Shown: piece by piece, positions 2,605 through 20,408 of the stretch
Layout of the letters: every line of letters begins with the position of its first letter
How positions within the stretch are numbered: position 1 is the stretch's first letter
Origin: Elusimicrobiota bacterium
Lineage (GTDB): Bacteria > Elusimicrobiota > Elusimicrobia > UBA1565
DNA length: 64,000 nt
Direction: 5' to 3'
NCBI GenBank assembly: GCA_043819795.1
Contig: JBDREN010000083.1
Coordinates: 5,298-69,297 of the forward strand
Notes under the pieces: model-generated
What the model was told of the DNA's origin: nothing
The model's input: the letters and a program-made list of their open reading frames with translations, nothing else
Database searches by the model: none
Position numbers and translations under genes: made by a program

Positions 2605-3378
2605 TCACCTCTTGACCACCGGCACCAGCAGCTTCTGGCCCGGCGTCAGCTCCCCTCCGCGCTGGATCCTGTCGTGATTGGCCTGATACAGCTCGATCCA
2701 GCGCTCGGCGCTCCCGTAAAGCTTGGTCGCGATGCTGCGCAGCGTGTCTCCCCGCCGGACCACGTAGATCCGCGCCCGCGACTCCTCGGAGGGAAGGCCC
2801 CCGTCGCGGAGCGTGGCCTCGATGACGTCGAGGCGCTTGCGCGACTCCTCGGCCTCGCGCTTGGCGCGGCGCGCCTCCGCCTGGGCCTCTTCGACCTCCC
2901 TCTTGAGTTTGTCGAGCTCCTCGGACGACGGAGCGGGGACCTCGACAGAATCCCCCGCCTGCCCCGGATCCGGCGCGGCGGCCGCCGGCGCCTCGACCTG
3001 GATCACCTCCGGGGGACGCGAAGCCTTGGCCGCCCAGCCTGTTCCCGGCGGGGCCTCCACCGTCAAGCGGTAAGCCGCCGAGAGCGCCTCTTCGGGGATC
3101 GCGGAATCCTCTCCCAGGGTCGCGATGAAACGCCCCTTCTCGGCCAGAACGTAGCGGGACTCTCTCCAGACCTCCTTGCCACCGGCGAATTCGTTCCAAA
3201 GGCGGAAGTGCAGCAGGAAGGTCCCGTTCTGCGGTTGGCCTCCGGAATCGGTGAGCTCCCCGGAATATCGCAGGGTCGTCCTGCCCGCGGATGCCGGCAG
3301 ACACAGGATCATGACCGCCAGGGCCGCCAAAGCGCACGGACGAACGCCGGATGTGGATGTGTCGCGCGTCGTTCTCAT
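2605..3378 (-). CDS. LysM-domain periplasmic protein with signal peptide and central coiled coil (257 aa)
   Basis: Start MRTTRD at 3378 with GGAGGA SD; ATGA overlap with upstream response-regulator stop; C-terminal LysM motif YVVRRGDTLRSIATKLYG...YQANHDRI...L.PGQKL. Confidence 0.8.
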   Translation of the reverse strand: MRTTRDTSTSGVRPCALAALAVMILCLPASAGRTTLRYSGELTDSGGQPQNGTFLLHFRLWNEFAGGKEVWRESRYVLAEKGRFIATLGEDSAIPEEALSAAYRLTVEAPPGTGWAAKASRPPEVIQVEAPAAAAPDPGQAGDSVEVPAPSSEELDKLKREVEEAQAEARRAKREAEESRKRLDVIEATLRDGGLPSEESRARIYVVRRGDTLRSIATKLYGSAERWIELYQANHDRIQRGGELTPGQKLLVPVVKR

Positions 3379-4625
3379 GGGATCTCCTCCCGTATTCGTT
3401 CTTCGAAGGCCGACAAGGGCCGGACATGGACGGTGCCGGAGCCGTCCCGGCCCATCCATACGTCGTCGCCCCGCAGCGTGAAGCCGGACAGCGGCGCCCC
3501 CCCCTCGTTCAAGAGCGGGAGGCTGTAGACGGCCAGGACGCCCAGCCTGGCGTCGAGCCGGTGCCTGTAGATCATCCGCGTCTCCGAGTCGGCCGACCAG
3601 AAATACGAGCCGTCCTTGAAGATGGAGGAGGGGGCCCTGCCCGGGGCCGGATAGCTCTCGAGCACCGTCAAGCCGGCGTCGATCCCATGCTGATAGAACC
3701 GCCGCTCCGAGGCGTCGCTGGACCACAAGTAGCGACCGTCGAAATAGACCCCGGCGGGGTTCGGTCCCGGGCTCCGATAGGCGCGCACGAGAGAGAAACG
3801 CTCGTCGAGGCGGCGCTTCTGGATCTCGCGCTTCCAGGAGTCGCATACGTAGAGATGCTCGCCCGAAACGGCGATCCCCGTGATATGCGTCTCCGGCAGG
3901 TGAACGGAGCGGACGACCTCGAGGCGGTTGCCCCGGCGCTCGTACTCGTAGACGCTCTGCGTGACCCAGTCGGCGCTCCAGAGCCGGTCCCCGCGCCAGA
4001 CAAGCGCCGTGGCGTTCTCGTGGGGGATGGCGAAATCCCTGCCCGCCTGCCGTCCGTAGAGCGTCCAGAGGATCCAGGCGCAGAACGCTCCCGCGATGAG
4101 CGCGCCCGCCAGCAGCCACGGCCACCCGGACGCTTCGCGCTTCGCCGGCCCGGCGGACCGGCCGCGCGCCGGCAGAGGCGCGGGACGGGCGTCCAGCGGC
4201 GCGATGACCCCGCGGACCTTCTCCGCGAGACGGCGTCCGAGGACTCCCATCCCTTCCGGAGCCTTGCCGCCGGTGAGAACGCGGTCCACGGTCTCCCTCA
4301 GCTCCCGGTTGCTGAAAGGCTTGGCCAGATAGTGGCTCGCGCCCAGCTGCATGACTTCCACGGCCGACTCCACGCTGCCGTAGCCGGTCACCATCACGAC
4401 CGGCGTCGTCCCATCGACCTCCCGAAGCTTGCGCAGGATCTGCACGCCGTCCATCCCCGGCAGGCGCATGTCCAGCAAGACGAGGTCCGCGCCCTCGCGG
4501 GACAAAAACTGCAGCGCGGTGGGGCCGTCCCCGGCCTCGTAGACCTGGTGACCCAGCCGGCTAAGGACGTTCGCGAGCGCCATCCGCATGTCCGCTTCGT
4601 CGTCTACCACCAGGATGCGTGCCAT
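3375..4625 (-). CDS. response regulator with N-terminal REC domain, one TM helix and a C-terminal extracytoplasmic repeat (beta-propeller-like) domain
   Basis: MARILVVDDEADMRMALANVLSRLGHQVYEAGDG..LVLLDMRLPGMDG = CheY-like receiver; TM WPWLLAGALIAGAFCAWILWTLY; 5 repeats with (L/F)(W/Y)xxD(W/S) motifs. Confidence 0.85.
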   Translation of the reverse strand: MARILVVDDEADMRMALANVLSRLGHQVYEAGDGPTALQFLSREGADLVLLDMRLPGMDGVQILRKLREVDGTTPVVMVTGYGSVESAVEVMQLGASHYLAKPFSNRELRETVDRVLTGGKAPEGMGVLGRRLAEKVRGVIAPLDARPAPLPARGRSAGPAKREASGWPWLLAGALIAGAFCAWILWTLYGRQAGRDFAIPHENATALVWRGDRLWSADWVTQSVYEYERRGNRLEVVRSVHLPETHITGIAVSGEHLYVCDSWKREIQKRRLDERFSLVRAYRSPGPNPAGVYFDGRYLWSSDASERRFYQHGIDAGLTVLESYPAPGRAPSSIFKDGSYFWSADSETRMIYRHRLDARLGVLAVYSLPLLNEGGAPLSGFTLRGDDVWMGRDGSGTVHVRPLSAFEERIREEIP

Positions 4626-4626
4626 G

Positions 4627-7600
4627 TCATCCTCTCTTCGCTTCGACCGAAAGCGTCACAGTCGAGGTGCTGCCCGCGTCCTTCTTGCTCCGGAACTCGA
4701 AGGAACCGCCGTGCGCCGCGACGATCCGTTTCGCGATCGCCACGCCCAGCCCCAGGCCGCCGGCCTTCATGGTGTAGAACGGCCGGCCCACATCCTTGAC
4801 GTGCTCCGGCGCCACTCCGGCGCCGGTGTCGGAGACCTCGACGCGGACGGTCCCGCGCGCCGCCTGATAGCGGGCCCTGATCGTCAGAGTGCCTCCCTCC
4901 GGCATCGCCTCGATCGAGTTGAGCAGCAGGTGCAGCAACGCCTCCTTGAGCCGCTCCGAATCGCCGCGAAGCTCCGGGACACCCTCCGCGACATCCGCCA
5001 CGATCCTGATATGCTTCTCGTCGCACTGCCGGGCGACCTCCGCGACGGCCGAGTCGATCCACGCCTCGACCTCGAGCGCCTGCGGCTTCAGGCCCAGGGG
5101 GCGAGTGAAGTCCGTGAGCTGCTCCAGACGCTCCCGCAGGTTCCCGATCGCCCGGAGGATGGCGTCCATGGTCGCGCGCTCCTTGCCGCCGACCCACAAT
5201 CCGGAGAGCCGGTCCTCCGCCAGGCTCTGGATGATGCCCAGCGGGTTGCGGATCTGATGGGCGATCCCGAAGACGAGATCGGTGAGCTCGGTCTCGAAGG
5301 CCACCTGCGGCAGGCGCCCCGTCTCCGCCTCGGGCTTCAGCCCGGAGAGCAGCCGGTCGCGCAGCTGACGGAGCTCCCTCTGCCGCCGCTCGATGTCGAC
5401 CTCCGCCCCGGCAAGCTTGTCCTCGCGCCCCTGGGACTGCCTTTCCCTGGCCGTCATCTCCTCATCGAGCTTCCGGCGACGACGCTCGAGCTCGGCCTCC
5501 TCATTCTTGAGCCGCTCGCGCAGCTTCTTGTCCGTCCCCCGCAAGAGCTCCTCGACTTCCTCGCGGCGCCGCTCGACCTCCGCTTCCTTCTGAGCGGACT
5601 CGTCCATGAGGCGCTTCTCGCCGGACTGCTCGCGCTCCTTGAGCGCCTTATCGCGAGCGTCGAGCTCCGCCTCCCTCTTGTGAAGCTCGGACGACGCGGT
5701 TTCCTGCTGCTTCTGCAGGCGCTCGCCTTGGAGCCGCGCGGTCTGCTCGACCTGGACGGCGCTCTGCTCTTCGAGCTCCTTGCGGCGCTCATCGAACTCA
5801 GCCTCGAGCCTGGTGCGCTCCACCACGAGCCTCTTGCGGTTGGCGGCCAAGAGGGCCGACTCCTTCTCGGCCAGGACGGTCCGCATCTCGCGCTCGAGCT
5901 CCTCGCGACGCCGCGCCTGGTCCTCATCCGCCGCCCTCTGCGACTCGCGCAGCAGACGGCGCTCGTGCTCGAGCTGCGCGTCAAGGTCCCGCTCGTGCGC
6001 CAAACGGCGCTCCTCCCCCTGCTTCTCCAGGAGGTCCTCGCGCTTGCGCAGCTGATCCTCCAGGCTCTCCGCGTGCAGGCGGAACTCCTCCTCCTTCTCC
6101 TTGAGCTGCGCGCGGAGATCGTCCTCTTTGGTCTGCAGATCCCGGTCGTAACGCGCGCGCTCCTCGCGCCGGATGCCGCGACGCGCCTCCTCGACCTTGT
6201 GCAGGAACTCCTTCTGAAGCGCGGCGCGCTCGGCGTCGAGGCCCTCCTCGCGCCTGGCCATCTCATCGCGCAGAGCGACGTGCATCTCCTCGGACGACTT
6301 GCGCAGCTCCGCGCGGTTGCGCTCCTGAGCCTCGCTGACCTCATTGAGCAGCGCCTCCTCCCGCTTCTTCCACGCGCGCTGAAGCTCCTCTTCCCTGCCC
6401 AGATGCTCCCGCTGCAGGGCCGTCTCGCGCTCGCGGAAGTCGCGCTCGAGCTCGGCGCGGCGGGCGTCGAGCCCCGCACGGGCGCGCTCGAGCGCCTCGC
6501 GCTCCGCCGCGACGGACTGCCGCAGGTCGCTGCGCTCCCGCTCCAGCTCGGCCTCGCGTTCCTCGACCGACTCGCGCATGGCCGTCTCCTTGCGCGCGTA
6601 GGCTTCCCGCAGCTCCGTCTCCCGGGCCTTCAGCTTCCGGCGACTCTCCTCGACCTCGACCTCGAGCTCGGCCTTGGCCTTCGCCCAATCCTCCCGCAAC
6701 GCCTCCCGCTGCGCATCGAGATGACCCGAGACCTCCGCCTCGGCCTCCTCGCGCGCGCGCCGCAGCTCGGCCTCCTTCTCGCTGACCGCCTTCTCCAGAG
6801 CCCGCTCCCTCTCGCGGTACTCCCGGGCCACTCCGCTCTTAAACGACTCCAGCTCCCGGGACCGCCGCACCTCCTCGGCCGCGAGCTCGGCGCGCTCCCG
6901 CTCGAGCTCCCCGTGACGCGCCTGGTAGGCGGCCTGCAACTCCTCCTGCCGGTTGCGATACTCGGCCTCCAGGCCGGCCCGGGCCTTTTCGACGTCCCGA
7001 CTTCGCTCCGCCAGCGCGGCGCTCTTGCTCTCGATCTCCCGGACCTGCTCCTGCCGCTCCCGCTCGAAGCGCGCGGCCAGCTCGGTTCTCTGGTCGGCCA
7101 GCTCCTTGCGAAGCTCGGCCTCGCGATGAACGAAGGACTCCTCAAGAGCCTGCTCGCGCTTCCGGAGCGAATCCTCCACACGCTTTTGGGCCGCCCCCAG
7201 CCCCTCGGTCTGGCGTTCGAGCTCGGCCTGACGCGCGCGAACGCCCTGCTCCTGCTTCTGCTGCTCCATGGCCAGAGCATCGCGAAGCTCGGCCTCGCTC
7301 TGCGCGAACGACTCCTCAAGAGCCTGCTCGCGTTTCCGGAGCGAGTCCTCCACGCGCTTGCGGGCCGACTCCAACTCCTCGGTCTTACGTTCGAGCTCGG
7401 CCTGACGCGCGCGAACGGCCTGCTCCAGCGTCTGCTGCTCCGCGGCCAGCGTCTCGCGGTCGCGCTCGAAGCCGGCGCGCAGCTCCCGTTCGCGCAACGC
7501 CGAGGCGGAACGCACCCCCTCCTCCCGCGCCCGGAAGGCGTTCTCGAGCTGCGTCTCGCGCTCACGCAGGCTTTTCTCAACCTGTAATTTGGACGCGTCG

Positions 7601-10600
7601 AGTTCCCGCATCCGCCGCGCCAGCTCCGCCTCGAGGCGCTCGCGCTCAGCGGCGAGCTCCTCCTCTTTCTGCCGGACCGCCGATTCCACCTCGGCCGCGC
7701 GGTCGCCGTGCTCGCTCTCCAGCAGCGACCGCCGGTGCGCGAGCTCTTCTTGGAAAGCCTTGCGCTCCCGCTGCGTCCGGGCGGAAAGCTCCGCGTCCCG
7801 CTTGGCGAACCCCGCGCGCAGCTGTTCCTCCCGCGCCGAGTAGGCGCGCTGCAGATCGGCCTCACCCTCCCGCGCGCGCTCCTCGAGCGCGAGGCGAGCC
7901 TCCTCGAGCGCCTTTTCCTTGCGCGCGAGCTCGTCCTGTCGCTGCTCGGCGGCCTGATCGAGCTGCTTTTCCTTATATATGAGCTCGGCCTGGCGCTCGG
8001 CAAGGACGCGCTCGTGCTCCTCGTACGTCTCCTGAAGCCGCCGGCGCTCCTCGACGAGCGCGGCGCGCAGCTCGCTCTCTCGAGCCGCCAACGCCGAGCG
8101 CGACTCCTCCTTCCGCTTCTCGAACTCGCGCTCGAGCCGCGCCTCGCGTTCCTGCAGCCTCTTTTCCTCGTCCATCCGGGACGTCTCCAGCTCGCGCTTC
8201 TTGCGCCCCGTCTCGTCCTCGATGCGGGTGCGCTCGCGCTCGATGGCCTCCTCCCTCCCGCGCAACACCAGGTCCATCTCACGCTGACGGTCCTCGAACG
8301 CCCGGTGCATCTCGGCGCGCTCGCTCTCCGACTCCACCTTGCGCCGCTCAAGACGCTCCATGGCCTGGGCGCGCTCGTTGTTCGCGGCGTCCTCGCGCTT
8401 CCGGAAGTCCGACTCGAGCTCCGATAGACGCTGCTGGTGGGCCTTCTCCAGATCAGCCTCCTGGGACCGGATCGCCTTCTCCAGCTCGAAACGCAGGCGG
8501 TCCAGCTCACCCTCCCTTCGGTCGTACTCGGCCTCAAGCGCGGCGCGCTGCTTCTCAAGAGCCGCCTCGAGCTTCCGTCGAGACTCGTCCTCCCAGCGGG
8601 CCTCGCGCTCGTTGAGACGCTCCGTGAAGGACCTGAGCTCGGCCGCCAGGCGGTCCTCGGCCTCGCGCTTCGAAAGATCCTGCTTATGCTCCCATTCGGC
8701 CTTCAACTCGGCCTCGAGCTGGAGGAAGTTCTTCTGAAGCGCATCTTCGCGCTCCCGGTAGAGAGCGTCGAGAGCGGCCCGCTCGCGGGACTGATTGTCC
8801 TGCATCTCGGAGACCATCGCCTGCTCGCGCCGACGCAGATCCTCGCCAAGAGACTCGTCCTTGGACTTGTACTCAGCCTCGAGGGCCTGCCTCCGCGAGT
8901 CAAGGTCCTTGACGCGCGACTCCAGCTCGGCGGCCTGCGCCGCCATCGCCTTGCGATGCTCCTCCTGGAAGTGCTGGTACTCCTTCGCGATCTCCCTGCG
9001 CTGATGGTCCAGCCAGGCGTCGTTGCGCTTCTTCATCTCCGCGCGGGACTCCGCGAGGCGGCGCTTGTACTCGCGCTCGAGATTGTCCTGCTGGTTCTTC
9101 AGCTCGGCTTCCCGCTGGGCGATCGCCTCGCGCATCTCGCCTGCGATGCGCTCGGTCTCGTAGCGTATGCGAGCGCGATAGCTCTCGCGCTCCTCGTCGA
9201 CCTTCTGCAGCAGCTCGCTCTCACGCTGGCTCCACCGCTTCTCGAGCTCAGCCTCGCGCTCGAGATAGGACTTATCCAGCCTCGTCTCCTTCTCCCGCAT
9301 CTCCTTTTGGAGCTGCGCCTGCAGCTTCTCCAGCTCCAGCTGCTTGCGCTCGTATTCCTCCTCCAGGACCGCACGTTGCGACTCGAGCTGCGCCGCCCTC
9401 TTGACCTCGAACTCGGCCTCCGACTGGCGGACCTTGCGCTGGATCCCGTCCTCCTGCTCCTTGAGCGAGCGTTTGAGCTTCTCGGCGGACTCCTCCTCCA
9501 GGAGTTGGGCCTTGTGCGCCCGGTCATCCTTCAGCTGCTTCTCGAGGCTCACATAGTTCGAATGCAGGGTCTCCTCGCGGCTCCGGTAAAGCTCGTCGAG
9601 GGACTGACGCTCCCGCGTCAGGACGACCTGCTGCTCCTCGATGAAGCGTCTCTCCCTGAGACGCCACTCGTCGGCGAGCTCCTCCTCCCGCTTCCGGTGG
9701 TAAGCCTGGAGGGCGTCGCGCCGCTTGGCCAGCTCACCCTCCCGCTCGTTCGACTCGGCGTTGAGCGCCTCGAGGTGGGCGCGGGCGTGCTCCTTCTGCT
9801 GCTCCCGTTCGCGGATGGTCATGCGGCGCTGGCGCTCCAGCCACTGCTCCTTCTCCTTCTCGGACTCGGCCAGGGCGTCTCTCTTCCAAGCTTCGAACCG
9901 CACCGCCAGCTGCGAGTCCGCCTCCGCGAGGGCCGCGGCGTGCTGCTCCCGCTCCTTCTGACGCTCGGCCTCGAGCGCCTGCACGGTCTCCGCGAAGCGC
10001 TGCGCCTGCGCCTGGAGGGCTTCCTGCCGCCGCGAGAGGTATTCCCTCTCCTTGCCCGTCCATAGCTCCTGAAGGCCGCGCTCCATCTCGATGTACTTCT
10101 CCTCGCGCTGGGCTTCTCGGCGCTTCTGGGCCTCCTGAATGGAGACGCGCTCCGCCTCGTGCCGGCGCTCGCGCGACTGCAGGTCCTCCCAGAGCGCCCG
10201 CTTCTCCGCATCCAACTTCTCGAACTCTTCGCGGACGCGGCTCAGCTCCAGATCCTTCTCCGAAAGCTGCTTCTCGCGCTCCAGGAGCTCGCTCTGATGC
10301 CCTTCCTTCAGGTTCTTGACCCGAAGCTTCCACTCGGCCTCGCGCCGCTCGTACTCGGCGTCCAGGTGCCTGGCCTGCTGGAGCAGATGCCGGCCCTGCG
10401 CCTCCTTGAGCGCCCGGACCTCCGCGGCGTGAGCGTCCTTGGCTTCGGCCTCCCGGCGATCGTAGCGGTCCTCGAGGTCCCGCTCCAGGCGCGCGTAATC
10501 CTGCTTCATCTTCTCGGACCGGCCGAAGAGATCGGCCTCATCGCGCTGGCGCCGCTGGTCGTGCTCCTCCTTCGTCTTCTCCATCTCCATGCGGGCCGCG

Positions 10601-12225
10601 CGGCGCACCTGCTCCAGCGCGATCTCGTAGCGGCGCACCAGCTCGGCCTCCCGCAGGTGCCACTGCTTATCGAGGTTCTTCTCCTTCTGGATGTACTCCG
10701 AGATCACGGTCTGCTTCCACGTCCGGAACTGCTCCTCGATCGTCTGCTGGGTCCTCTCCAGCTCGGCGACCCGGGCCTGGTAGGCCTCCTCGAGCGTCCG
10801 GTCGCGCTGCTCGAACTGCGACTTCAGGGAAGCCCGCTCGGCCTCGACGGCCTTCTCATGCTCCTCGAGGAGCTCCATCTTGCGGCGCGTCCACTCCTCG
10901 CGCAGCGCGTTCTCCTTCGCCAAGTACTGCTCCTGCATCTCCACGTGCTTGTGCTGGGAGGCCTCCTCGAGCGCCTTCTCGCGCTCTTGCACGCGGTTCT
11001 CGGCCTCCGCCCAGCGGGCGTTGAACTCGGCTTCGAGGGCGGTGCGTTGGCGGTCCCCGTCGCGCTGGACCTCGGCCTCCCGCCGCTCGAGGTCCCGGGA
11101 CCGCGCCTGATACTCCTCCTCGAGGGCCTTGGCGCGCTGTCGCGCCCGCTCGGCGGCTTCCGCCTTTTCCTTCTCGAGCTCGTCCTCGACGCGCTTGAGC
11201 AGCTGCGCCTCCTTACGGATGTGGCTCTGCTGCTGCTGGGTCTCCATCTCGGCGTAACGCGTCTCCACGCTCTTCACACGCTTCTGGAAGTCCTCCTCCA
11301 GCTCCCGACGCCGGCGCTCGAGAAGCCCTTCGATCTCGCGCGAGCGGTCGGCCAGCGCGCGGGCACGCTCCTCGAACTGCTCCTGCACGGCCGTATCCAG
11401 CTTCTCACGCGCATCCTTCGCGCGCTGCCACAAGCCGTTCTCGAGCTCCGCCCAGGCGGCCTGCAGCTCGGCCTCGCGCTTGCCGTACTTCTCCTGCAGG
11501 GCGAGCTCCTTGGACCGGAACTCCCCGAAGAGCTTCTCCTCGCGCTCCTGGAGCTTGAGCTCGCCCTCCTTCGCGGCGGCGGCCAGCACCCGCTGGAACT
11601 CCTCGTTCTTGCGCCTAAGATCGAGTATCTCGCGCTCCTTGAGCTCGAGCTCCGCCTCGCGGTTCTTCAGCGTGTTGAGGATCTCCTCGTCGCGTTTCTG
11701 GCGCAGCCGCTGCACCATATCCTGGTCGCGGTGGAAACGGTTGACGAGCTCGGCCTTCTCGCGCTGGGAGGCCATCAGCTCGGCGTCGCGCTGCTCGAGA
11801 ATGCGCCTGAGCTCCCGCCACTGCTCCTCCTTGGAGCGGTGCGTGCCCTTCCACTGCTGGACCTCTGCCGTCAGGCGGGACAGCTCCTCGTCCATGTGCC
11901 CGCGGTCGCGCTCCACGCGCGTCCGTTCCTCTTCGCGGACCTCGAGACGCACACGGTCGCGCCAGCGCTGCTCCTGATCCCGATGATTCTTGCGCTCCTC
12001 CTCCCAGCCTTTGGACTCGTCCTTCCATGCGGCGACCTGTCTCGTCAACTCCTCCTTCTCCTGCTGGAGCATCTGCTGTCCGTTCTGGGCTTCCTGGAGG
12101 TTCCCCTTGAGGCGCACATTCATATCCTGGAGGTCACGGATCGTGGCCACGGCCCCCCGGATCGCAAGTCGCGCAGCTTCCAGATCGGTTATCTCTCGAT
12201 ATGCCTCTTCATCCCATGGGTTCAT
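4627..12225 (-). CDS. giant (~2530 aa) coiled-coil sensor histidine kinase: ~2250 aa of E/R/K/A/L/Q-rich heptad sequence then HisKA (IAHQIRNPL) + HATPase_c (GTGLGLGVA)
   Basis: Single ORF 4627..12309; real start MNPWDEEAYRE at 12225 supplied by upstream repeat unit (GGGAGGcgaccATGA); no TM segments evident; internal 58-codon tandem duplication. Confidence 0.85.
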   Translation of the reverse strand: MNPWDEEAYREITDLEAARLAIRGAVATIRDLQDMNVRLKGNLQEAQNGQQMLQQEKEELTRQVAAWKDESKGWEEERKNHRDQEQRWRDRVRLEVREEERTRVERDRGHMDEELSRLTAEVQQWKGTHRSKEEQWRELRRILEQRDAELMASQREKAELVNRFHRDQDMVQRLRQKRDEEILNTLKNREAELELKEREILDLRRKNEEFQRVLAAAAKEGELKLQEREEKLFGEFRSKELALQEKYGKREAELQAAWAELENGLWQRAKDAREKLDTAVQEQFEERARALADRSREIEGLLERRRRELEEDFQKRVKSVETRYAEMETQQQQSHIRKEAQLLKRVEDELEKEKAEAAERARQRAKALEEEYQARSRDLERREAEVQRDGDRQRTALEAEFNARWAEAENRVQEREKALEEASQHKHVEMQEQYLAKENALREEWTRRKMELLEEHEKAVEAERASLKSQFEQRDRTLEEAYQARVAELERTQQTIEEQFRTWKQTVISEYIQKEKNLDKQWHLREAELVRRYEIALEQVRRAARMEMEKTKEEHDQRRQRDEADLFGRSEKMKQDYARLERDLEDRYDRREAEAKDAHAAEVRALKEAQGRHLLQQARHLDAEYERREAEWKLRVKNLKEGHQSELLEREKQLSEKDLELSRVREEFEKLDAEKRALWEDLQSRERRHEAERVSIQEAQKRREAQREEKYIEMERGLQELWTGKEREYLSRRQEALQAQAQRFAETVQALEAERQKEREQHAAALAEADSQLAVRFEAWKRDALAESEKEKEQWLERQRRMTIREREQQKEHARAHLEALNAESNEREGELAKRRDALQAYHRKREEELADEWRLRERRFIEEQQVVLTRERQSLDELYRSREETLHSNYVSLEKQLKDDRAHKAQLLEEESAEKLKRSLKEQEDGIQRKVRQSEAEFEVKRAAQLESQRAVLEEEYERKQLELEKLQAQLQKEMREKETRLDKSYLEREAELEKRWSQRESELLQKVDEERESYRARIRYETERIAGEMREAIAQREAELKNQQDNLEREYKRRLAESRAEMKKRNDAWLDHQRREIAKEYQHFQEEHRKAMAAQAAELESRVKDLDSRRQALEAEYKSKDESLGEDLRRREQAMVSEMQDNQSRERAALDALYREREDALQKNFLQLEAELKAEWEHKQDLSKREAEDRLAAELRSFTERLNEREARWEDESRRKLEAALEKQRAALEAEYDRREGELDRLRFELEKAIRSQEADLEKAHQQRLSELESDFRKREDAANNERAQAMERLERRKVESESERAEMHRAFEDRQREMDLVLRGREEAIERERTRIEDETGRKKRELETSRMDEEKRLQEREARLEREFEKRKEESRSALAARESELRAALVEERRRLQETYEEHERVLAERQAELIYKEKQLDQAAEQRQDELARKEKALEEARLALEERAREGEADLQRAYSAREEQLRAGFAKRDAELSARTQRERKAFQEELAHRRSLLESEHGDRAAEVESAVRQKEEELAAERERLEAELARRMRELDASKLQVEKSLRERETQLENAFRAREEGVRSASALRERELRAGFERDRETLAAEQQTLEQAVRARQAELERKTEELESARKRVEDSLRKREQALEESFAQSEAELRDALAMEQQKQEQGVRARQAELERQTEGLGAAQKRVEDSLRKREQALEESFVHREAELRKELADQRTELAARFERERQEQVREIESKSAALAERSRDVEKARAGLEAEYRNRQEELQAAYQARHGELERERAELAAEEVRRSRELESFKSGVAREYRERERALEKAVSEKEAELRRAREEAEAEVSGHLDAQREALREDWAKAKAELEVEVEESRRKLKARETELREAYARKETAMRESVEEREAELERERSDLRQSVAAEREALERARAGLDARRAELERDFRERETALQREHLGREEELQRAWKKREEALLNEVSEAQERNRAELRKSSEEMHVALRDEMARREEGLDAERAALQKEFLHKVEEARRGIRREERARYDRDLQTKEDDLRAQLKEKEEEFRLHAESLEDQLRKREDLLEKQGEERRLAHERDLDAQLEHERRLLRESQRAADEDQARRREELEREMRTVLAEKESALLAANRKRLVVERTRLEAEFDERRKELEEQSAVQVEQTARLQGERLQKQQETASSELHKREAELDARDKALKEREQSGEKRLMDESAQKEAEVERRREEVEELLRGTDKKLRERLKNEEAELERRRRKLDEEMTARERQSQGREDKLAGAEVDIERRQRELRQLRDRLLSGLKPEAETGRLPQVAFETELTDLVFGIAHQIRNPLGIIQSLAEDRLSGLWVGGKERATMDAILRAIGNLRERLEQLTDFTRPLGLKPQALEVEAWIDSAVAEVARQCDEKHIRIVADVAEGVPELRGDSERLKEALLHLLLNSIEAMPEGGTLTIRARYQAARGTVRVEVSDTGAGVAPEHVKDVGRPFYTMKAGGLGLGVAIAKRIVAAHGGSFEFRSKKDAGSTSTVTLSVEAKRG

Positions 12226-12348
12226 GGTCGCCTCCCATGGAGATGGACGCGGCCATCCCCTGCGCGATGCTCGGTCATGGTCGCCTCCCACGGCAGTCGA
12301 CGCGACCATTTCCTGCGCTATGCTCGGTCATAACACTGCCTCCAGGTA
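12222..12348 (-). repeat. two tandem 57-nt copies of SD/start-codon-bearing intergenic repeat (mini-ORFs MTEHSAGNGRVDCRGRRP* and MTEHRAGDGRVHLHGRRP*), with own GGAGG SD, ATGA-coupled to each other and to the giant HK start
   Basis: Reverse complement matches repeat at 50606-50719 and 59231-59397; internal 8-bp inverted repeat ATGGTCGC/GCGACCAT; GGGAGG 6 nt before terminal ATG. Confidence 0.7.
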
Positions 12349-12547
12349 GATACGTCCGCCCCCCACGATGGGGCGATGCCCTATAGCACGAACTCTCTCT
12401 TCAACGTTAGTGTATAGCCGCAACCGGAAAAATCAAGCACTCTCAGCCATTACTTGGCCGAGCCTCGGCGGGTTCCCAGATCCGACTCCTAGCCTAGGGA
12501 AAGGATAACGGGGGGTAATTACAGATTCTTTAACGAAAATCGGGGCC

Positions 12548-12774
12548 TAACAGTCCGTGGCAAAAGTCTTCCGGGGCCTGCGATCGCCTGGATGCGGCCT
12601 GCGCCCGCGTTGCTCCTCGGTCACACCGGGCCCCGGCAGGGGCCCAGTGCCGCACGACCTCAGGAAATGCTTCGGAGCGCTGTCATCCCGTAGAGGGATG
12701 CTACCTCGTCGCGCCTTGGCTCGGCTCGCCCCGGACGATTTCGCCATCCGAAATACTTTTGCCACGGACTGTTA
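12548..12774. mobile_element. MITE-like element: 20-bp perfect terminal inverted repeats TAACAGTCCGTGGCAAAAGT flanking ~187 bp, in intergenic region between two HK genes
   Basis: Left IR 12548-12567, right IR 12755-12774 (exact reverse complement); right IR overlaps stop codon of PAS-HK gene; symmetric spurious ORFs MAKVFR on both strands. Confidence 0.45.
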
Positions 12775-13839
12775 AGGCCGCGATCGAGCGGGGAAGACAA
12801 CGGTGACGGCCGTCCCTCGGCCGGCCTCGCTGTCGAAGGAGATGGTCGCCTCGTGCTCGGCCAGGACGCGCTTGGCGAGATAGAGCCCCAGACCCGTGCC
12901 GTCCTCTTTGGTCGTGAAGAAGGGCGCGCTGACCTTCGCCAACACCTCGGGCGCCATCCCCGCGCCCGAGTCCCCCACGACGAGACGCGCCCCCCCCCGC
13001 TCCGGGACGTCCGTGACGACGCGCAGGCGCCCCCCTTTCGGCATGGCCTCGATCGCGTTGACCAGCAGGTTATGGACCACGGCGCGGACATGCTGCTCGT
13101 CGAGGAGCAGTCTCGGGATGTCGCCGAGCCGCACATCGAGCTCGATCCGCTGCTTCTGGCACATCTTCTCGACGAGACGGACGACGCCGCGCGCCACCTC
13201 GTTGAGCGAGCCCTCGCGCAAGAGAGACTTCCCCACCTTGGCGAAGTCCAGAAGGGCCCGTATCGAAAGCGACCCGTGCCGGGCGTTGCGGAGGATCATC
13301 TCGAGGTTCTCTTTCATCTTGGAGTCGGGGGAGAGGGACTCGAGCCCGAACTCGGCCGTGCTGGCGATGACGTGCAGCGGCGTGCGCATCTCGTGAGCGA
13401 AGGTCGCCGCCATTCGCCCGACAGCGCTGAAGCGCTCCATCCTGACCAACGCCTCCTGGACGGCCTTGTGCTCGGGGGCCGTCTCGAAGTCGGCCACGGG
13501 GGGGCTGATCATGACGAGGAAGGCCTCGGGGCCCTTCCCCAGCGAGCGGACGGTCAAGAACACCCTTTCCGGGCTCCCGTCGCGGCGCGTCATCCGCGCC
13601 TCGTAGTTTTTGAGCACCTTCACGTTGCAGGCCGCCTTGAGCAATCCGACGCATTCCTCCCGCCTCGGGAAGAACTCCGCGAAGTCGCGATCGACAGCCT
13701 CCTCGAGGGGGACGCCAAGGAGCTCGGCGGCTCCGCGGGACCACGTCCGGACCACGCGGGAACCGTCGAGCCCGACGAGCGCATCCTCGGACTCGTCGAA
13801 CATGCAGGCGAAAAGGCGGTCTTTCAACCGTTCTTCCAT
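12772..13839 (-). CDS. PAS-domain sensor histidine kinase (PAS + HisKA FAHEMRTPL + HATPase_c)
   Basis: Motifs FAHEMRTPLHVI, NLLVNAIEAM, GDSGAGM, GTGLGLYLAKR. Confidence 0.85.
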   Translation of the reverse strand: MEERLKDRLFACMFDESEDALVGLDGSRVVRTWSRGAAELLGVPLEEAVDRDFAEFFPRREECVGLLKAACNVKVLKNYEARMTRRDGSPERVFLTVRSLGKGPEAFLVMISPPVADFETAPEHKAVQEALVRMERFSAVGRMAATFAHEMRTPLHVIASTAEFGLESLSPDSKMKENLEMILRNARHGSLSIRALLDFAKVGKSLLREGSLNEVARGVVRLVEKMCQKQRIELDVRLGDIPRLLLDEQHVRAVVHNLLVNAIEAMPKGGRLRVVTDVPERGGARLVVGDSGAGMAPEVLAKVSAPFFTTKEDGTGLGLYLAKRVLAEHEATISFDSEAGRGTAVTVVFPARSRP

Positions 13840-14919: not shown

Positions 14920-15167
14920 CCCGCCTCTTACACGAGCCCCTGTGGCGGAGCGTGGATCGTGCTGGGCCCTCCGGCCCTTTCGATCTCGCCACCCGGGACC
15001 AAGCGGCGGTGCCGGCGGCTTGGGTCCGGGCCTCAGCCGCCTCGGCCCACGCGCTCCTCCGAAAACGCTCCCGACGGGGACCCCCGATCCGCCTTAGGCC
15101 CTAAGTCCCGAGAAAGCATGGGCCCCCCGGCACTGGCCTTCTAGGACTTTTCCCCTATCCTATCGGT

Positions 15168-18100
15168 ATGCGGCGGACCAATGGGCCCAGGTGGGTTCTA
15201 CTCGCGGCCTGCGCGTTGAGCCTCCAGGGCGCCGCCCGCGCCGGGACCGGTCCCCGTCCCTCTCCGAAGAGACTCCAGGAAGAGAAGCTGCCCGGCGCCA
15301 TCGTCGCGAGGCTCCCTGTTCCCGCCGCCTTCGCGTCTCCGGGGGCCCCGGCTTCGACGCTCTCCTCTCCGGCGGTCCTGCTCGCGCGGGAGATCGATGA
15401 GCTGTTCGCCGGCCTGAGCAGTGAGACCAACGACGGCACGCGGGCTCTCCGCCAGCCGGCTCCGGAAAAAGCCCCGCCCCGGGGAACCGGCTCCGGACGG
15501 CTTTCGTCGCGATCGTCTCCCGCGGCGGGAACGCGCGAGCCCGCCGAGGTTTTCGCCGCCCTGGACCGACGGCTCTCCGACATCCGCGCCCGGATCATCG
15601 ATACGATCGACGATCCCGAGGAGGTCGCGATCCTCCTGGCCCGCGTCGACCGGATCCGTGGCGTCCTGGCCAAGCTCCGGAGGGCCGGGGAAACGGGCCA
15701 AGCCCGTTCCCTGTCCGGGGCGATGGCCGGACTGGCGCGGGCCCTCGGGCGGGGGACCGATGACGAGAACCTCTCCAGGTTCGAGACCCTGGTCGACCGC
15801 CTGATGCAAGCGCGGTCGCTGCCCCCCGACCGGCTCGGAACGATCTTCGACAACACGCCCGAGTTCCCGGACAGCGATGTTCTCGCCCCCGTCCCGGCGG
15901 AGGGCTTCAAGGCCCGGGCCCCGCGAGCAAGGGCGAGCGGAGCGGGCGTTTCGCAAGCGGCCCTGTTGGACATCGACCGCTACCCACGGCCCCTGACCGG
16001 GATCCGTGTCGACGGCGGCGTCGTTCCGAAGCCGAGAGGGCCGGGAACCTCGGCCAAGGCCGAGCCGGAGTCCGAGGTCGGCCGCCCACAGCGACGAGCG
16101 GTCACCGCTTCGCAGGGGCTTGAGCGCTCGGCTGTCGCGGCGCTCTCGCCCTTCGCGGGACTGAGCCCGAAAGGCCGCCAGGACCTGTTCCGAAAGGACC
16201 GGGCCGCTCTCAGGCGGGAGCTGCTCGCCGTCGGACTCCGGGCGCTCGAGGAGGGCGACGCGGAGCTCGAGCCGTATCGGGAGGATCTGGACGCCGCGGA
16301 CGGAAGGCTCTCCGGGATGCGTAAAGCGCTGCTGGCCCGGCTCGGGTTCGATGCGCCCCCGCACAACGACCAGGAGCGCAGCGGGCGGTTCGCGACTCTC
16401 ACGAAAGAAGCCCCCCATCTGTCTCTCTATTTCGCGCGGCGCGGGATTTACCAGATGCGCATGCGGCAGGCCCACGGCGAGCATGCCGTGCCGCCGGAGA
16501 CGCGCTTCGCACCCTGGGAACTCGGCATCGAGGACGGCAGCGAGAAAGCCGTCGTCTACGCTACGGCCAAGGACGGCGACCGCACGTTCTACGGGCTGCG
16601 CCGGGAGTTCCAGGACGGCTCCTCGCGCTTCGCGGCGACCGACGGAGCGGAGGGGCTGGTCGTCGTGGTGTCCCCCTCCGATAGCCGCGAGATCCGCACG
16701 CGTATCCGTTTCGACGACCAGGGCCGGCCGGATCGCACCCGGACCTCGATCATCGACACGGGGACCGGCAAGAGGATCCGGGAGGAGATCGCCGACATCG
16801 CGCGGGCGCTCACGCGCTTCGTCGATTACGATCAAGCCGGCGACGCGGTGAGGGTCCTGACCCTGGACAGCGGCACCGGCGAGCAGGTGGTGGAGGACCG
16901 CCGGCAGGGCCGCCGCGTCGCGACCGACAAAGACGGAAAGGTCACGATCACGCCGATCCGAGGCGGAGCCCAAGCCTGGCAGCAGCAGGGCCGGCTCGAT
17001 GAGAGCGGCCGCTTCATCCTCGACCGCCTGGTGCGCGAAGACGGCAGCGTCGTCGAGCGCGTCAGCCCGCACGTCCTGAAGATATCGCGAGACGGCAAGG
17101 CGCAGGGCTATGAGATCGTCGTCGACTCCATCTTCCATGGCGCCCGGGGGCCTGAGCGCGAAGCGGAGTCCTCCAGGATCGCCCGCGAGATCATCGCGGC
17201 GCTCGGCTACCAGGACAAAGACGACCGGCGCTCGCGCCCCCTTAGCAACTGGCTCTCCGACACCTGGACGAAGGACGAGCGGACGCGCGGCGTCGCGATG
17301 ACGGTCGATCCGCGCGGAAGGTTCCAGGTCGTCTACAGCTACAAAGACGGGACCAAGCGCATCGAGCGCGCCAAGTACGGCCTTTCGACCTCGTACGGCG
17401 ACGGGAAGCGGGAGCTCGCGCTCGTGACGCTGAGGCCGGTCCATACCGACCGCCAGGGCCGGGCGCGGCTGGACCCCCGGCGCTACCGCGAGTACCTGGC
17501 CGGCGGCGGCTACAACCAGTGGCATTCCACTTTCGAGTTCAAGAAGGCCGGCTGGTTCTCGAACGCGAAGACGATCGAGCACGTCTCCCTCATCCGCTAC
17601 GGCCGGGACGGAAGCCTTCCACGCCTGGGTCCCGGGAGCGGGGGCGAGCGGGACGGAGACTCCGGCAGCGGCCGCTGGACGGAACGCGGCCGGGAGAAGA
17701 AGGACGAATTCGTCAATGAGGTCGGCGGGACATCGACCTTCGGCATCGTGGGGACCGCGATCCATGAGGCGCCGGTGGTCGGGGACGTCCTGCAGGCCGG
17801 CGGAGCGGTCGGAAAGACGCTCTGGACGGGCATCATGGCGGCTCCGCCCACCTTCATCTATGCGGTCACCAAGGACACGGATTACGGCCTCGCCATGTCG
17901 GGAAGCTACGCGAAGAACCCCCTGGTGAACCGTCTGGTGGGAGACCAGGGACACCTCGACCGCATGGACGGCAAGATGTGGGAGGTCGTCCTTATCGAGG
18001 CCCGCGAAAACCGCCGAAAAGACCTCGATCAGATGGGCTACACCGAGGGGAATACGGACCCGGAGGAGCATCAGCGTTTGCTCTCCCAATGGCGCGGAGA

Positions 18101-20408
18101 CCGCTTCGTGTCCCCCGAGGATTGCCTCAAATCACATCCGCGCGGCTATTGCGATCGGTTCCGGTACAGCAGAGAGGAGCTCATGCGCGCGGTGCGCGGC
18201 TACGGCGCCCTGACCTGGGGCGACCGCCTGATCGAATCGGCCGAGGGCAAGAAGGGCGCGGCCTACTGCGCCACGGCCGGCGCGGGGTGGGGGCTCAAGG
18301 TGTTCGAGAACGTGGGCGAGACGCTCTTCAATCCCGTCATCTGGGCCACTTTCGGCGTGGGCAAGGGAGTGCAGGCCATGACGGCCATGCGCGCCGCGGG
18401 CAACAGCTCGCTCGCGGTCTCCGGCGCGCTCTCCACCGCTCGCGTCACGCACGCGCTCTTGAGCACGACGCTCTACAGCACGTGGGTCGTGGGCGGGGTG
18501 GACAACCTCGGCCAGACCGTGGTCGCGCTCCAGGAAGGCGACAGAGAACAGGCATTGAAGAAGTCGGCCGACCTCGGCACCGATCTCTTCTTCGTCTGGA
18601 TGATGGCCCGCGAGTCTCGCAGCCACAAGCTCCGCCAGAAGGCCCGACAGGCGCTCCTAAAGGAGCAAAGGCTGATCACAAAAGAATACAAGGCCGCTTC
18701 CAAAGCGGTCCGCACTAAGTCCGCGCACGCGACGAACGGCAAAGCCCCGGTCAAGAGCGCCGAGAAGGCGCTCCAGTCCAAGGCCGCGCACGCGACGAAC
18801 GGCAAAGCCCCGGTCAAGAGCGCCGAGAAGGCGCTCCAGTCCAAGGCCGCTCACGCGACGAACGGCAAAGCCCCGGTCAAGAGCGCCGAGAAGGCGATCC
18901 GTTCCAAGGCCGCGCACGCGCAGAAGCCCGCGAAGCCGGCCCCCGAGCCAAAAACGGAGGCCGCACGGGGCAAGACGACGGGCAAGGGCGAGACGCGGGC
19001 CACGAGCGGAGCCCCCAAGAAGCCGGCGCCGAGGACGATCAGGGAGCGCATGCACGAGTGGAAGGCCCGCCTGGTGGAGAACAAGCCCAGGGTCATGGAC
19101 TTTCTGAAGAAGCGTATGCCTAAGCTCAAGTCCTCTCAAGCATCCAAGGCCAAAGCGCTCAAGGCGCGCCAGACCGCAAGGCACACCAAGGCGAACCGGG
19201 CGAAGAAGACGGAATCCAAGTCCGGCAAGAATGCGAAGAGGGGAGGCGAGTCGCCGCTCCGGAATCTCGGCGAACGAGTCGTGGCGGTCGCCAAATCCTT
19301 GATCTCGAAGGGCAAGACGACGGGAAGGAAAGCCCGCAACGCCGGCAAGCTCAAGAAGGCCGCTGTCGCGCCCCGCGCAATCCTGAGTCCCGAGCTCAAC
19401 AGGTTCGCCTCCGAGACGGAGCCCGTACCCGCACCGGACCCGGCGGACTCGGACGCGCGATACACCGCCGATGAGGAGCCTGGAGAAGAGGCCGGCGTGG
19501 ATCCCGGGCAGCGCGGAGAAGACGACGGCCGCGCCGCCCGGGATGCCGCGAAGCCCCGGGCCGAGCCCTTGATCGGAGCCGGCCGCGCGGCGGATTCTCC
19601 CGCCGGCGCCCCGGATTCCGGCGGGGATCAGGCGAGCCCAGGCTCAGGCGGCGATTCCGGAAGCGAAGCCGGCGGCGGCGAGACCGGTTCGGGCACGGGA
19701 AGCGGCGCTCTGGGCGGCGGAAGTCTCGCGAGCGGATCGGGGAGCGGAGGCTCGGGCGGCGGCCGCAAGGGTGCGGGGCGGAATCCCCGCGTGCATGGGC
19801 GGGCGGGACAGAAGTTCGACGGTGGACGGACTACCGTCGCTCGCCTGACCCCGACTTCCCCCCGGCCGTTGCCCTCCCTGCAACCGGAGCGGCCCCGAAT
19901 CATGCCGAGAGCCCCCGAGCCCATAGATCCTTACCGCCAAGCGCACGCTTCGCCGGAGCGCCGGTCCGTCCCGCCAGTCGAGGAGAAACCCGCGCCCCGG
20001 GTGTCCAGGAAGAGTTCGCCGCCCGGGTTCAACGCGACGGGCGGGTCGGGCGGGTCTCTAGCGCCCGGCGGCCCGGAGTTCAAACCGCGGGACCCGTTCC
20101 CCGAGGGCAGGAAGGCGGCTCCGCCGGCGACACCTTCCCCGCCCCGAACCGAGGCGCGCAGCGGCGCTCCCGCCGCCGCGGCCGCCTCTCCCGCCGCGCA
20201 CGACGGCTTCTTCGAGATCCCGCGACACCGCCTCCGCCCGGCCGGCCACCTCCCCAACGGCCGCCTTCCCGAACGGGGGCAAGAGAGCCCCTACCGCGCG
20301 CACGCGCTCAGCCTCCTGCTGGAGCTGGCCGGGCTGGGGGCCGCGATCTACCTTTTTAGGCTCTCAAGATTCCCGTTCCTTATCGGCATCGCGCGCAAAC
20401 GTCTCTGA
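15168..20408 (+). CDS. giant secreted/membrane-anchored protein (1746 aa): signal peptide, large unknown domain, 3x21-aa tandem repeats, lysine/alanine-rich histone-H1-like basic region, G/S-rich and P-rich low-complexity region, C-terminal TM anchor
   Basis: Single long ORF; N-terminal MRRTNGPRWVLLAACALSLQGAARA; C-terminal LSLLLELAGLGAAIYLF; contains two in-frame copies of the 45-nt GC palindromic repeat. Confidence 0.7.
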   Translation: MRRTNGPRWVLLAACALSLQGAARAGTGPRPSPKRLQEEKLPGAIVARLPVPAAFASPGAPASTLSSPAVLLAREIDELFAGLSSETNDGTRALRQPAPEKAPPRGTGSGRLSSRSSPAAGTREPAEVFAALDRRLSDIRARIIDTIDDPEEVAILLARVDRIRGVLAKLRRAGETGQARSLSGAMAGLARALGRGTDDENLSRFETLVDRLMQARSLPPDRLGTIFDNTPEFPDSDVLAPVPAEGFKARAPRARASGAGVSQAALLDIDRYPRPLTGIRVDGGVVPKPRGPGTSAKAEPESEVGRPQRRAVTASQGLERSAVAALSPFAGLSPKGRQDLFRKDRAALRRELLAVGLRALEEGDAELEPYREDLDAADGRLSGMRKALLARLGFDAPPHNDQERSGRFATLTKEAPHLSLYFARRGIYQMRMRQAHGEHAVPPETRFAPWELGIEDGSEKAVVYATAKDGDRTFYGLRREFQDGSSRFAATDGAEGLVVVVSPSDSREIRTRIRFDDQGRPDRTRTSIIDTGTGKRIREEIADIARALTRFVDYDQAGDAVRVLTLDSGTGEQVVEDRRQGRRVATDKDGKVTITPIRGGAQAWQQQGRLDESGRFILDRLVREDGSVVERVSPHVLKISRDGKAQGYEIVVDSIFHGARGPEREAESSRIAREIIAALGYQDKDDRRSRPLSNWLSDTWTKDERTRGVAMTVDPRGRFQVVYSYKDGTKRIERAKYGLSTSYGDGKRELALVTLRPVHTDRQGRARLDPRRYREYLAGGGYNQWHSTFEFKKAGWFSNAKTIEHVSLIRYGRDGSLPRLGPGSGGERDGDSGSGRWTERGREKKDEFVNEVGGTSTFGIVGTAIHEAPVVGDVLQAGGAVGKTLWTGIMAAPPTFIYAVTKDTDYGLAMSGSYAKNPLVNRLVGDQGHLDRMDGKMWEVVLIEARENRRKDLDQMGYTEGNTDPEEHQRLLSQWRGDRFVSPEDCLKSHPRGYCDRFRYSREELMRAVRGYGALTWGDRLIESAEGKKGAAYCATAGAGWGLKVFENVGETLFNPVIWATFGVGKGVQAMTAMRAAGNSSLAVSGALSTARVTHALLSTTLYSTWVVGGVDNLGQTVVALQEGDREQALKKSADLGTDLFFVWMMARESRSHKLRQKARQALLKEQRLITKEYKAASKAVRTKSAHATNGKAPVKSAEKALQSKAAHATNGKAPVKSAEKALQSKAAHATNGKAPVKSAEKAIRSKAAHAQKPAKPAPEPKTEAARGKTTGKGETRATSGAPKKPAPRTIRERMHEWKARLVENKPRVMDFLKKRMPKLKSSQASKAKALKARQTARHTKANRAKKTESKSGKNAKRGGESPLRNLGERVVAVAKSLISKGKTTGRKARNAGKLKKAAVAPRAILSPELNRFASETEPVPAPDPADSDARYTADEEPGEEAGVDPGQRGEDDGRAARDAAKPRAEPLIGAGRAADSPAGAPDSGGDQASPGSGGDSGSEAGGGETGSGTGSGALGGGSLASGSGSGGSGGGRKGAGRNPRVHGRAGQKFDGGRTTVARLTPTSPRPLPSLQPERPRIMPRAPEPIDPYRQAHASPERRSVPPVEEKPAPRVSRKSSPPGFNATGGSGGSLAPGGPEFKPRDPFPEGRKAAPPATPSPPRTEARSGAPAAAAASPAAHDGFFEIPRHRLRPAGHLPNGRLPERGQESPYRAHALSLLLELAGLGAAIYLFRLSRFPFLIGIARKRL
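15899..15946 (+). repeat. 45-nt GC-rich palindromic repeat copy, in-frame inside giant secreted protein (EGFKARAPRARASGAG)
   Basis: Match to consensus GGAAGCCTTCAACGCCTGGGCCCCGCGAGCGAGGGCGAGCGGGAC. Confidence 0.6.
17606..17657 (+). repeat. 45-nt GC-rich palindromic repeat copy, in-frame inside giant secreted protein (GSLPRLGPGSGGERDG), flanked by GGACGGA direct repeats
   Basis: ggacggaagccttccacgcctgggtcccgggagcgggggcgagcgggacgga. Confidence 0.6.
18717..18905 (+). repeat. 3 x 63-bp perfect/near-perfect tandem repeats encoding KAAHATNGKAPVKSAEKALQS
   Basis: Units start 18717, 18780, 18843; partial fourth unit. Confidence 0.8.

Follow-up and report, generated by a model that had tools for sequence, protein, structure and literature searches.

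The window analyzed here is a 64,000-nucleotide (nt) stretch of contig JBDREN010000083.1 from an Elusimicrobiota bacterium (assembly GCA_043819795.1), and our subject is a short tandem repeat on its minus strand (about 12222-12343) from which a giant histidine kinase (HK) gene begins. This gene (4627-12225, minus strand) encodes a coiled-coil, histidine-kinase-like protein of 2532 aa that opens MNPWDEE, as judged from its translation, its C-terminal HATPase_c domain and the N-termini of its homologs; a first-pass annotation had given 2530 aa, and counting from the ATG at 12225 corrects the length to 2532. Direct reading of the minus strand gives the order GGAGG-N7-ATG (12331), an 18-codon mini-open reading frame (mini-ORF), ATGA, a second 18-codon mini-ORF (ATG 12278), ATGA, and the kinase ATG at 12225. 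In letters, the array opens ctGGAGG(12343-12339)cagtgtt ATG(12331) ACC GAG CAT AGC GCA GGA AAT GGT CGC GTC GAC TGC CGT GGG AGG CGA CC-ATGA(12278-12275), and the second unit ends CC-ATGA(12225-12222), followed by ACCCATGGGATGAAGAG. Unit 1 (12275-12331; 57 nt with its stop) encodes MTEHSAGNGRVDCRGRRP and a stop, and contains hairpin arms at 12309-12302 and 12284-12277 and a Shine-Dalgarno (SD) motif, GGGAGG, at 12289-12284. Unit 2 (12222-12278) encodes MTEHRAGDGRVHLHGRRP and a stop, with hairpin arms at 12256-12249 (ATGGCCGC, with one C.A mismatch) and 12231-12224 and its own GGGAGG at 12236-12231. The terminal ATGA of unit 1 is common to unit 2, the TGA of unit 1 overlapping ATG 12278, and the TGA of unit 2 in turn overlaps the kinase ATG 12225, so that the 57-nt mini-ORFs share 4 nt and recur with a 53-nt period. 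Tandem Repeats Finder reports the same array as a period of 53 nt with 2.1 copies, 86% matches and a score of 162, and the two units are identical at 48/57 positions. This is the layout that the first-pass annotation had described, two 57-nt units joined by ATGA at the start of the kinase.

The same annotation held that the array is not coupled to an upstream ORF, and this is essentially right, as no credible gene abuts it. The nearest real gene upstream, for a PAS-HisKA-HATPase kinase, ends at 12772, about 440 nt from the array. A 31-codon TTG-initiated ORF (12423-12328) does stop on the ATGA of unit 1; it looks like a chance occurrence, because its GC content at third codon positions (GC3) is 0.55, against about 0.85-0.9 for local genes, and it has no SD. 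As for the claim that the element initiates from an SD of its own, a GGAGG is indeed present (12339-12343, minus strand), 7 nt upstream of the unit-1 ATG (12331-12329), and it lies outside the repeat, in the host flank, and is not the element's.

The repeat in front of the kinase is not a product of chance, because the 15-mer GGGAGGCGACCATGA, from the 3' part of the unit, occurs five times in the window against 0.32 expected, and because the unit recurs in other genomes. The window itself holds five units at three loci, namely the HK pair and arrays at 50606-50719 and 59231-59397, which likewise lie between co-oriented genes. The first of these (50606-50719, plus strand) is a long unit with a 110-nt period, whose GTGA contains the stop of an upstream GT4 gene and whose ATGA contains the start of a GT2 gene, with a 37-codon open frame running across the unit. 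At the second, another long unit (59231-59344, plus strand), whose GTGA contains the stop of a pfkB/rfaE-like gene, is followed by a short unit (59341-59397, plus strand), whose terminal ATGA holds the start codon of kdsB. The KdsB protein is 100% identical to P0006 (256 aa), and the public annotation of P0006 uses the ATG of the short unit as its start; an exact look-up of the window's KdsB and GT2 proteins returned no record. A long unit is a short unit with a 60-nt structured insert after TGACCGAGCATAGCG, and outside the window no copy of this insert was found, leaving the window's two copies as the only ones.

Beyond the window, a pattern scan using one genome per species recovered 13 short units at 12 loci in seven high-GC Elusimicrobia metagenome-assembled genomes (MAGs). 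A metagenome scan in which both hairpin arms were left free gave 42 loci; 12 units belong to the family, and the other 30 of the 42 matches were set aside as chance, with no family similarity. Altogether there are 24 unique copies, 84-100% alike, across about ten Elusimicrobia MAG or metagenome assemblies. All 24 are sense-oriented and end ...GGGAGGCGACC-ATGA exactly on the start codon of the downstream gene, and these downstream genes are functionally unrelated (HPr, PtsI, MiaA, GlyA, Obg, KdsB, GT2, HK, an ABC transporter and others). The name of coupling repeat given in the first-pass annotation thus suits a family that recurs between co-oriented genes in the window and in other Elusimicrobia assemblies, and the architecture is also consistent with a coupling role, since the unit always closes with an SD and an ATGA on the downstream start and its 5' (A/G)TGA is often the upstream stop. 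The invariant blocks of the unit are TGACCGAGC, AATGGTCGCGTC and GGGAGGCGACCATGA; the hairpin loop, codons 4-6 and codons 12-14 vary, and the changes are mostly non-synonymous. Searches for known relatives were negative: no Rfam 15 family matched the repeat, whether in the whole window (gathering score) or in 12150-12800 (E<=1), blastn of the long and short units against plasmids and phages gave no match, and a pattern scan of viral contigs gave no unit.

Copies fall into size classes, with a 53-nt period for the short unit and long variants of 110 and 125 nt, and four arrays are tandem: two short units at HK, long plus short at kdsB, a 125-nt variant plus a short unit in L049, and an internally deleted remnant plus a full unit in L002. 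The variant in L049 (minus strand, about 4817-4945) has a 125-nt period, runs GTGACCGA...GGGGGCGACCATGA and precedes a normal short unit; it contains a long internal inverted repeat (ccacagagacacagagagac / gtctccgtgtctctgtgcctctgtgg), and its ends are conserved, its interior being unrelated to the 60-nt insert of the window. In L002 (6494-6510; also in L036), gCCGAGAGGCGACCATGA stands between the HPr stop (TAG) and a full unit. It looks like a unit from which the middle 36 nt were deleted between two GAG triplets, either as a footprint or as a product of decay.

The kdsB junction provides a direct comparison of filled and empty sites. In two relatives, pfkB and kdsB overlap by 4 nt without any repeat, as ATGA in L060 (kdsB 73% identical; ...cgccgcgcATGAcccggg..., the junction itself reading ...cgcgcATGAcccgg) and as GTGA in L061 (kdsB 67% identical; ...gggcggcGTGAgcggga..., junction ...gcggcGTGAgcggg). 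The window is filled at the same place, ...aggcgctcGTGA, long unit, short unit (...GCGACCATGA), tcctaagg, or at the junction ...gctcGTGA, long unit, short unit (...GACCATGA), tccta. Thus, the array lies exactly within the stop/start overlap, the left TGA still serving as the pfkB stop and the right ATGA being the kdsB start. Repeat-free DNA is also found at the starts of HK homologs, which begin at ...ATGAAC (...ctcATGAACCAG and ...ctccATGAACCCC), and at the same point the window reads gttATGA, two units, ACCCATGG.

At the left edge of the element, the tetranucleotide is ATGA or GTGA in 23/24 copies. In about 7/16 genome loci, a long upstream ORF that looks coding has its stop there, and an SD-like motif lies 7-17 nt upstream of the tetranucleotide in 12/23 loci, compared with 15% of all (A/G)TGA sites (P = 4.5e-5). 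This fits the view that the gene would once have started at the left (A/G)TGA, whether or not an upstream stop overlapped it, and that the element brings a new start. Given this excess of SD-like motifs to the left of the elements, the GGAGG at 12343-12339 is most likely host sequence, probably the original ribosome-binding site (RBS) of HK, now driving mini-ORF 1.

Several copies show further likeness between the unit's ends and the host start. In L005 (5842-5897) and L006 (5784-5839), the two most diverged copies, of 56 nt, the 5' end reads ATGACTGA, not ATGACCGA, and the host gene that follows likewise opens with ATGACTAA or ATGACTGA; in L001, L002a, L009, L052 and L056, the host gene opens (A/G)TGACC like the unit. 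This small sample may reflect a flanking repeat of more than 4 nt, or recombination between the ends of the unit and the host start.

A further regularity concerns the reading frame. No stop interrupts the frame that terminates at the next start in any of the 24 short or three long units, and each period (53, 110 or 125 nt) leaves a remainder of 2 on division by 3, which a relay through ATGA requires. Units of 57 nt, 21 in number, have the ATGA overlap. In L005, L006 and L010, the three variants of 56 nt, the frame is shifted, yet each stops at nt 5-7 of the host gene, where the background frequency of a stop is 0.027, so that three out of three would arise by chance at about 2e-5. Because frames are open in all size classes and the 56-nt variants stop early, we take the spanning ORF with its terminal overlap to be under selection. 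The mini-ORF peptide, in contrast, is by its pattern of variation neither conserved nor the point of the element, because the variation is non-synonymous and the frames differ between variants.

The second conserved feature is an 8-bp hairpin, AUGGUCGC/GCGACCAU, predicted in every unit. In the predicted fold, the loop displays GGGAG of the SD, the 3' arm begins with the final G of this SD, and the AU of the start codon takes part in pairing at the base of the stem; in the long units, a multi-branch domain closed by GUGACCGAG/CUUCGGUCAC is predicted, which includes the upstream stop codon. The hairpin proposed in the first-pass annotation is present in unit 1 as ATGGTCGC/GCGACCAT (12309-12302 with 12284-12277), whereas the ATGGCCGC of unit 2 leaves one C.A mismatch.

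Together these features suggest how an insertion at a start codon could be tolerated. Insertion would keep the left TGA, either as the upstream stop or, with the A or G before it, as part of the old start codon, and the 3' end of the unit would bring a new GGGAGG SD, a 5-nt spacer and a new ATGA, leaving the downstream protein unchanged. At the HK locus, the original RBS (GGAGG-N7) and the original ATGA would now open mini-ORF 1, whose terminal ATGA would pass to mini-ORF 2, whose ATGA would in turn start the kinase at 12225, so that the relay would operate twice. A ribosome that loads at the host SD, or that comes from the upstream gene, would translate the mini-ORF, melt the hairpin and terminate 1 nt past the next AUG, and the SD that it has just passed would help it to re-initiate (termination-reinitiation coupling); ribosomes may also enter directly at the strong SD displayed in the loop. 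The net effect of insertion would be nearly neutral for expression, which would explain why copies are seen only in sense orientation and abutting start codons. We consider it likely, with good though incomplete confidence, that the units form a dispersed intergenic repeat family of high-GC Elusimicrobia with MIRU architecture (see below) and act as a translational relay through their mini-ORFs. Translation of the mini-ORFs, coupling of HK to them and mobility of the element are, in this account, inferred from sequence. More ambitiously, this could be an independently evolved, currently or recently active mobile family that targets (A/G)TGA starts and stop/start overlaps and carries a self-contained translational relay, a proposition that we regard as evenly poised.

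Several observations weigh against this account. The copy in L011 begins CTGA, which gives a mini-ORF without a canonical start. The empty HK sites belong to shorter proteins, 41-51% identical, that are not strict orthologs. Support for the hairpin from covariation is thin: there is one compensatory C-G to U-A double change, common to L028 and L052 and probably a single event, beside one U.G wobble arising from a GTG start and two copies with a C.A mismatch (HK unit 2 included), and 13/20 of the aligned sequences had been found with a pattern that fixes most of both arms. The comparison of units for compensatory changes that the first-pass annotation had proposed therefore yields that one double change, which is too weak, and too biased by ascertainment, to prove a structure. 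Moreover, the fold energies of the HK units are no better than those of shuffled sequences (z = -1.4 and +0.15). No transposase or mobilizing function was identified, whole genomes not having been searched for transposases, and the unit has no terminal inverted repeats (TIRs): aligned with the reverse complement of the last 20 nt, the first 20 nt match at best at 7-8/20 at any offset, and on this ground a classical MITE was rejected. Lastly, L003 (5635-5980) and L048 (reverse strand, about 1190-1372) have an identical unit and a 100%-identical miaA downstream, with wholly different sequence upstream. This discrepancy could reflect a genomic rearrangement at the repeat, or else a chimera created when metagenome contigs were joined across its 57 nt, and it warns that some contexts of the family may be artefactual.

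Perhaps the units are passive, and the kinase is translated only through direct 30S binding at the strong SD of unit 2 (GGGAGG, 12236-12231), with no coupling or relay at all and with mini-ORFs that go untranslated or are by-products of no consequence. We hold this as a tentative alternative. Since the SD is predicted to lie mostly in the hairpin loop, it would be accessible without prior melting; the unit-2 stem is already weakened by its mismatch, the L011 copy lacks a canonical mini-ORF start, and HK homologs manage without an obvious SD. Against passivity, 27/27 units, of four length classes, retain a frame without stops up to the next start; the three frame-shifted variants all reach a stop no more than 4 nt beyond the start codon; and half of the loci have an SD-like motif before the left start. 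On the subject of the homologs, L013, L015 and L016 (each 2780-3000), which carry repeat-free homologs of the kinase N-terminal region, have no recognizable SD before the ATG; the HK gene of the window, unlike them, has both the host GGAGG and the GGGAGG of the element.

It is rather improbable that the unit is instead a trans-regulated cis-acting RNA element, in which a GGA hairpin for a CsrA-like protein or small RNA, or an RNA thermometer, would define a post-transcriptional regulon in place of a near-neutral mobile insertion. Conservation does have the look of such an element, in that what stays invariant is the stem, the SD and the flanking AGGAAAT, as opposed to the peptide, two GGA motifs lie about 25 nt apart with one in the hairpin loop, and one stem change is compensatory. 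The downstream genes, however, have no functional coherence, orthologous junctions in relatives are entirely without the element, tandem copies and length variants are typical of repeats and not of regulators, and there is no Rfam match even at E<=1.

The start of the kinase bears on a further alternative, namely that the longest ORF is correct. This ORF (4627-12309, 2560 aa) opens at the ATG at 12309-12307 inside unit 1 and reads MVASTAVGGDHD..., which would give the kinase a 28-residue N-terminal extension encoded by the repeat. Being the longest ORF and beginning with ATG are what speak for it, and we consider it very unlikely. Five homologs have their first codon at the counterpart of 12225 (MNQWDEE, MNPWDEQ, MDQWDEK and two others), in DNA without the repeat upstream, and their N-termini, 41-51% identical, align from residue 1, at MNPWDEE. 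The suspicion of the first-pass annotation that the ORF track extends the HK N-terminus too far through the repeat is thereby borne out. The SD before ATG 12225 is strong and well spaced (GGGAGG, 5 nt, ATG), and in all other family copies, the publicly annotated KdsB among them, the downstream gene starts at the ATG that ends the unit. By contrast, the sole SD-like motif near ATG 12309 (AGGA) ends 2 nt upstream, which is too close, and GC3 over the repeat and the 28-codon extension is 0.63-0.71 in all frames, compared with 0.84 in the first 200 kinase codons, and so is not coding-like. ATG 12309 is simply the ATG of the 5' hairpin arm (AATGGTCGC), which is present in every unit, 31 nt before the terminal ATG and so out of frame at single-unit loci. 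Here it comes into frame with the kinase because two units give 31+53 = 84 nt, and the frame stays open only because unit 2 has CATCGCG in place of the CATAGCG of other units, which contains an in-frame TAG. From these comparisons we conclude that the true start of HK is ATG 12225, that ATG 12309 is a spurious start in frame by accident, and that longest-ORF annotation places the kinase start 28 codons too early. An exact look-up of the HK protein with either start returned no record.

The history of the HK array can be read in part from its two units. Unit 1 is closer to the kdsB short unit (59341-59397; 55/57 identical) than to its neighbor unit 2 (48/57), and unit 2 is the window copy furthest from the family consensus (47/57). 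Because unit 1 is nearer the kdsB copy and unit 2 is the most diverged, the sequences favor two successive arrivals, or conversion of unit 1, over a recent local duplication, and unit 2 would be the older copy. A local tandem duplication of the translation-initiation region of the kinase, or a functional 18-aa peptide encoded by the array, might be suggested by the tandem arrangement and intact small ORFs, and is the least credible explanation of all, given that near-identical units stand at unrelated loci and in other genomes, that unit 1 resembles the kdsB copy more than its neighbor, and that the peptide varies through non-synonymous and frameshift changes (MTEHKRGNGRV... vs MTEHSEEMVASI...).

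The surroundings of the array deserve brief mention. Downstream of the giant HATPase_c gene (4627-12225, minus strand), and within 2 nt of it, lies a response-regulator gene (3375-4625, minus strand), and upstream, after the 440-nt gap, the PAS-HisKA-HATPase kinase gene occupies 12772-13839 (minus strand); in L015, a HisKA/HATPase gene is also found upstream of the homolog of the kinase N-terminal region. Within the coiled-coil part of the giant gene, a 174-nt tandem duplication (7108-7449; 2.0 copies, 87% matches) translates as ...VRARQAELER.TE.L..A.KRVEDSLRKREQALEESF.... Elsewhere in the window, a 63-nt tandem repeat (18717-18920; 3.2 copies, 95% matches) lies in frame (21 codons) within a 1768-codon ORF (15105-20408, plus strand), and a tRNA gene (34197-34268, minus strand), the sole Rfam match in the window, overlaps the open stretch of an ORF (32924-34246, minus strand) from the GC3 scan.

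The placement of these units has practical consequences for annotation. Longest-ORF calls, and some automatic gene calls, would misplace starts wherever two units stand in tandem, as happened with the 2532-aa kinase, and mini-ORFs and operon junctions in Elusimicrobia MAGs are likewise liable to misreading. If copy number varies between strains, as it does in variable-number tandem repeat (MIRU-VNTR) loci, the arrays could possibly also serve as strain markers in metagenomes.

Comparison with known repeats helps to place the family. Small repeats of the REP/BIME, MITE and IS200/IS605-derived kinds resemble it in being of non-coding size, with a GC-rich hairpin and a short repeated flank, and differ in that the Elusimicrobia unit has no TIRs, no GTAG head, one hairpin in the short unit and a strict sense orientation at start codons. 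A REP/BIME element (an imperfect palindrome of about 35 nt, in both orientations and mostly 3' of genes) was considered and rejected, as the consensus lacks GTAG and all copies are sense and 5' of starts. IS200/IS605-derived elements have subterminal hairpins at both ends, depend on a cognate Y1 transposase and insert on the 3' side of a fixed tetra- or pentanucleotide, which they do not duplicate. Of these traits, a fixed left (A/G)TGA and a right-end hairpin are present here, and the short unit has one hairpin only. Neisseria REP2 and Borrelia IR-A/IR-B likewise bring an RBS and an ATG (PMC3184786, section 12), but a promoter is part of those repeats, tandem arrays are not described for them, and they lack coupled mini-ORFs that overlap their neighbors, whereas the Elusimicrobia element sits inside operon junctions. 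A scan of 12150-12900 for sigma-70-like promoters and terminators found none, with the proviso that Elusimicrobia promoters may differ.

A functional parallel is found in engineered bicistronic designs, in which a short leader ORF delivers ribosomes, overlaps the start of the gene and contains its SD, which makes expression independent of local mRNA structure (PMC12548453, ref. 78). Those designs are synthetic, whereas the Elusimicrobia element is natural, repeated and apparently mobile. It may be seen as a natural counterpart of engineered translation-coupling cassettes, and not as a new principle.

To our knowledge, the mechanism by which mycobacterial interspersed repetitive units (MIRU) are mobilized has never been established; a second, unrelated example would, for that reason, be of some value. 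MIRU, which are presumed to be mobile, are the closest known kind of repeat (Supply et al., 1997, Mol Microbiol 26:991; summarized in PMC12548453, section 11, and PMC3184786, section 9). They are units of 40-100 bp that are transcribed polycistronically and whose ORFs overlap adjacent genes, and tetranucleotide direct repeats are described at their filled and empty sites (PMC3184786, section 9). Units of 77 and 53 bp lie, for example, in the senX3-regX3 spacer, for which promoter activity has been reported (PMC4213456). The likeness is one of architecture. Both families are made of short units (53 and 77 bp in MIRU; 53, 110 and about 125 nt here), occupy intergenic positions in operons in sense orientation, often in head-to-tail tandem, and have size classes that differ by internal segments. 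Each has a small ORF that overlaps its neighbors at either end, start on stop and stop on start (-4, ATGA), and in both, filled and empty sites are flanked by a repeated tetranucleotide, as at pfkB/kdsB, where ATGA or GTGA is empty and GTGA...ATGA filled. Insertion at start codons with little effect on expression is likewise inferred for each. The differences lie in the host, uncultured Elusimicrobia as opposed to Mycobacterium; in the strongly conserved, predicted 8-bp hairpin of the Elusimicrobia repeat, which displays the SD and pairs the start codon; and in the promoter activity of the senX3-regX3 MIRU region (PMC4213456), as against the HK array, where no promoter-like site was found. We would thus call the Elusimicrobia repeat a MIRU analog by architecture; with a host from a different phylum, it is not filed as MIRU, and relatedness in sequence is not expected.

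If this interpretation is correct, the family would be a second example unrelated to MIRU, and comparison of the two could expose the machinery that mobilizes start-codon-seeking repeats. Its clean empty and filled sites and sharply defined (A/G)TGA target would provide comparative leverage on MIRU-type mobilization. The solution found in MIRU would then be no mycobacterial oddity, as a repeat that rebuilds stop, SD and start would recur in a distant, uncultured phylum.

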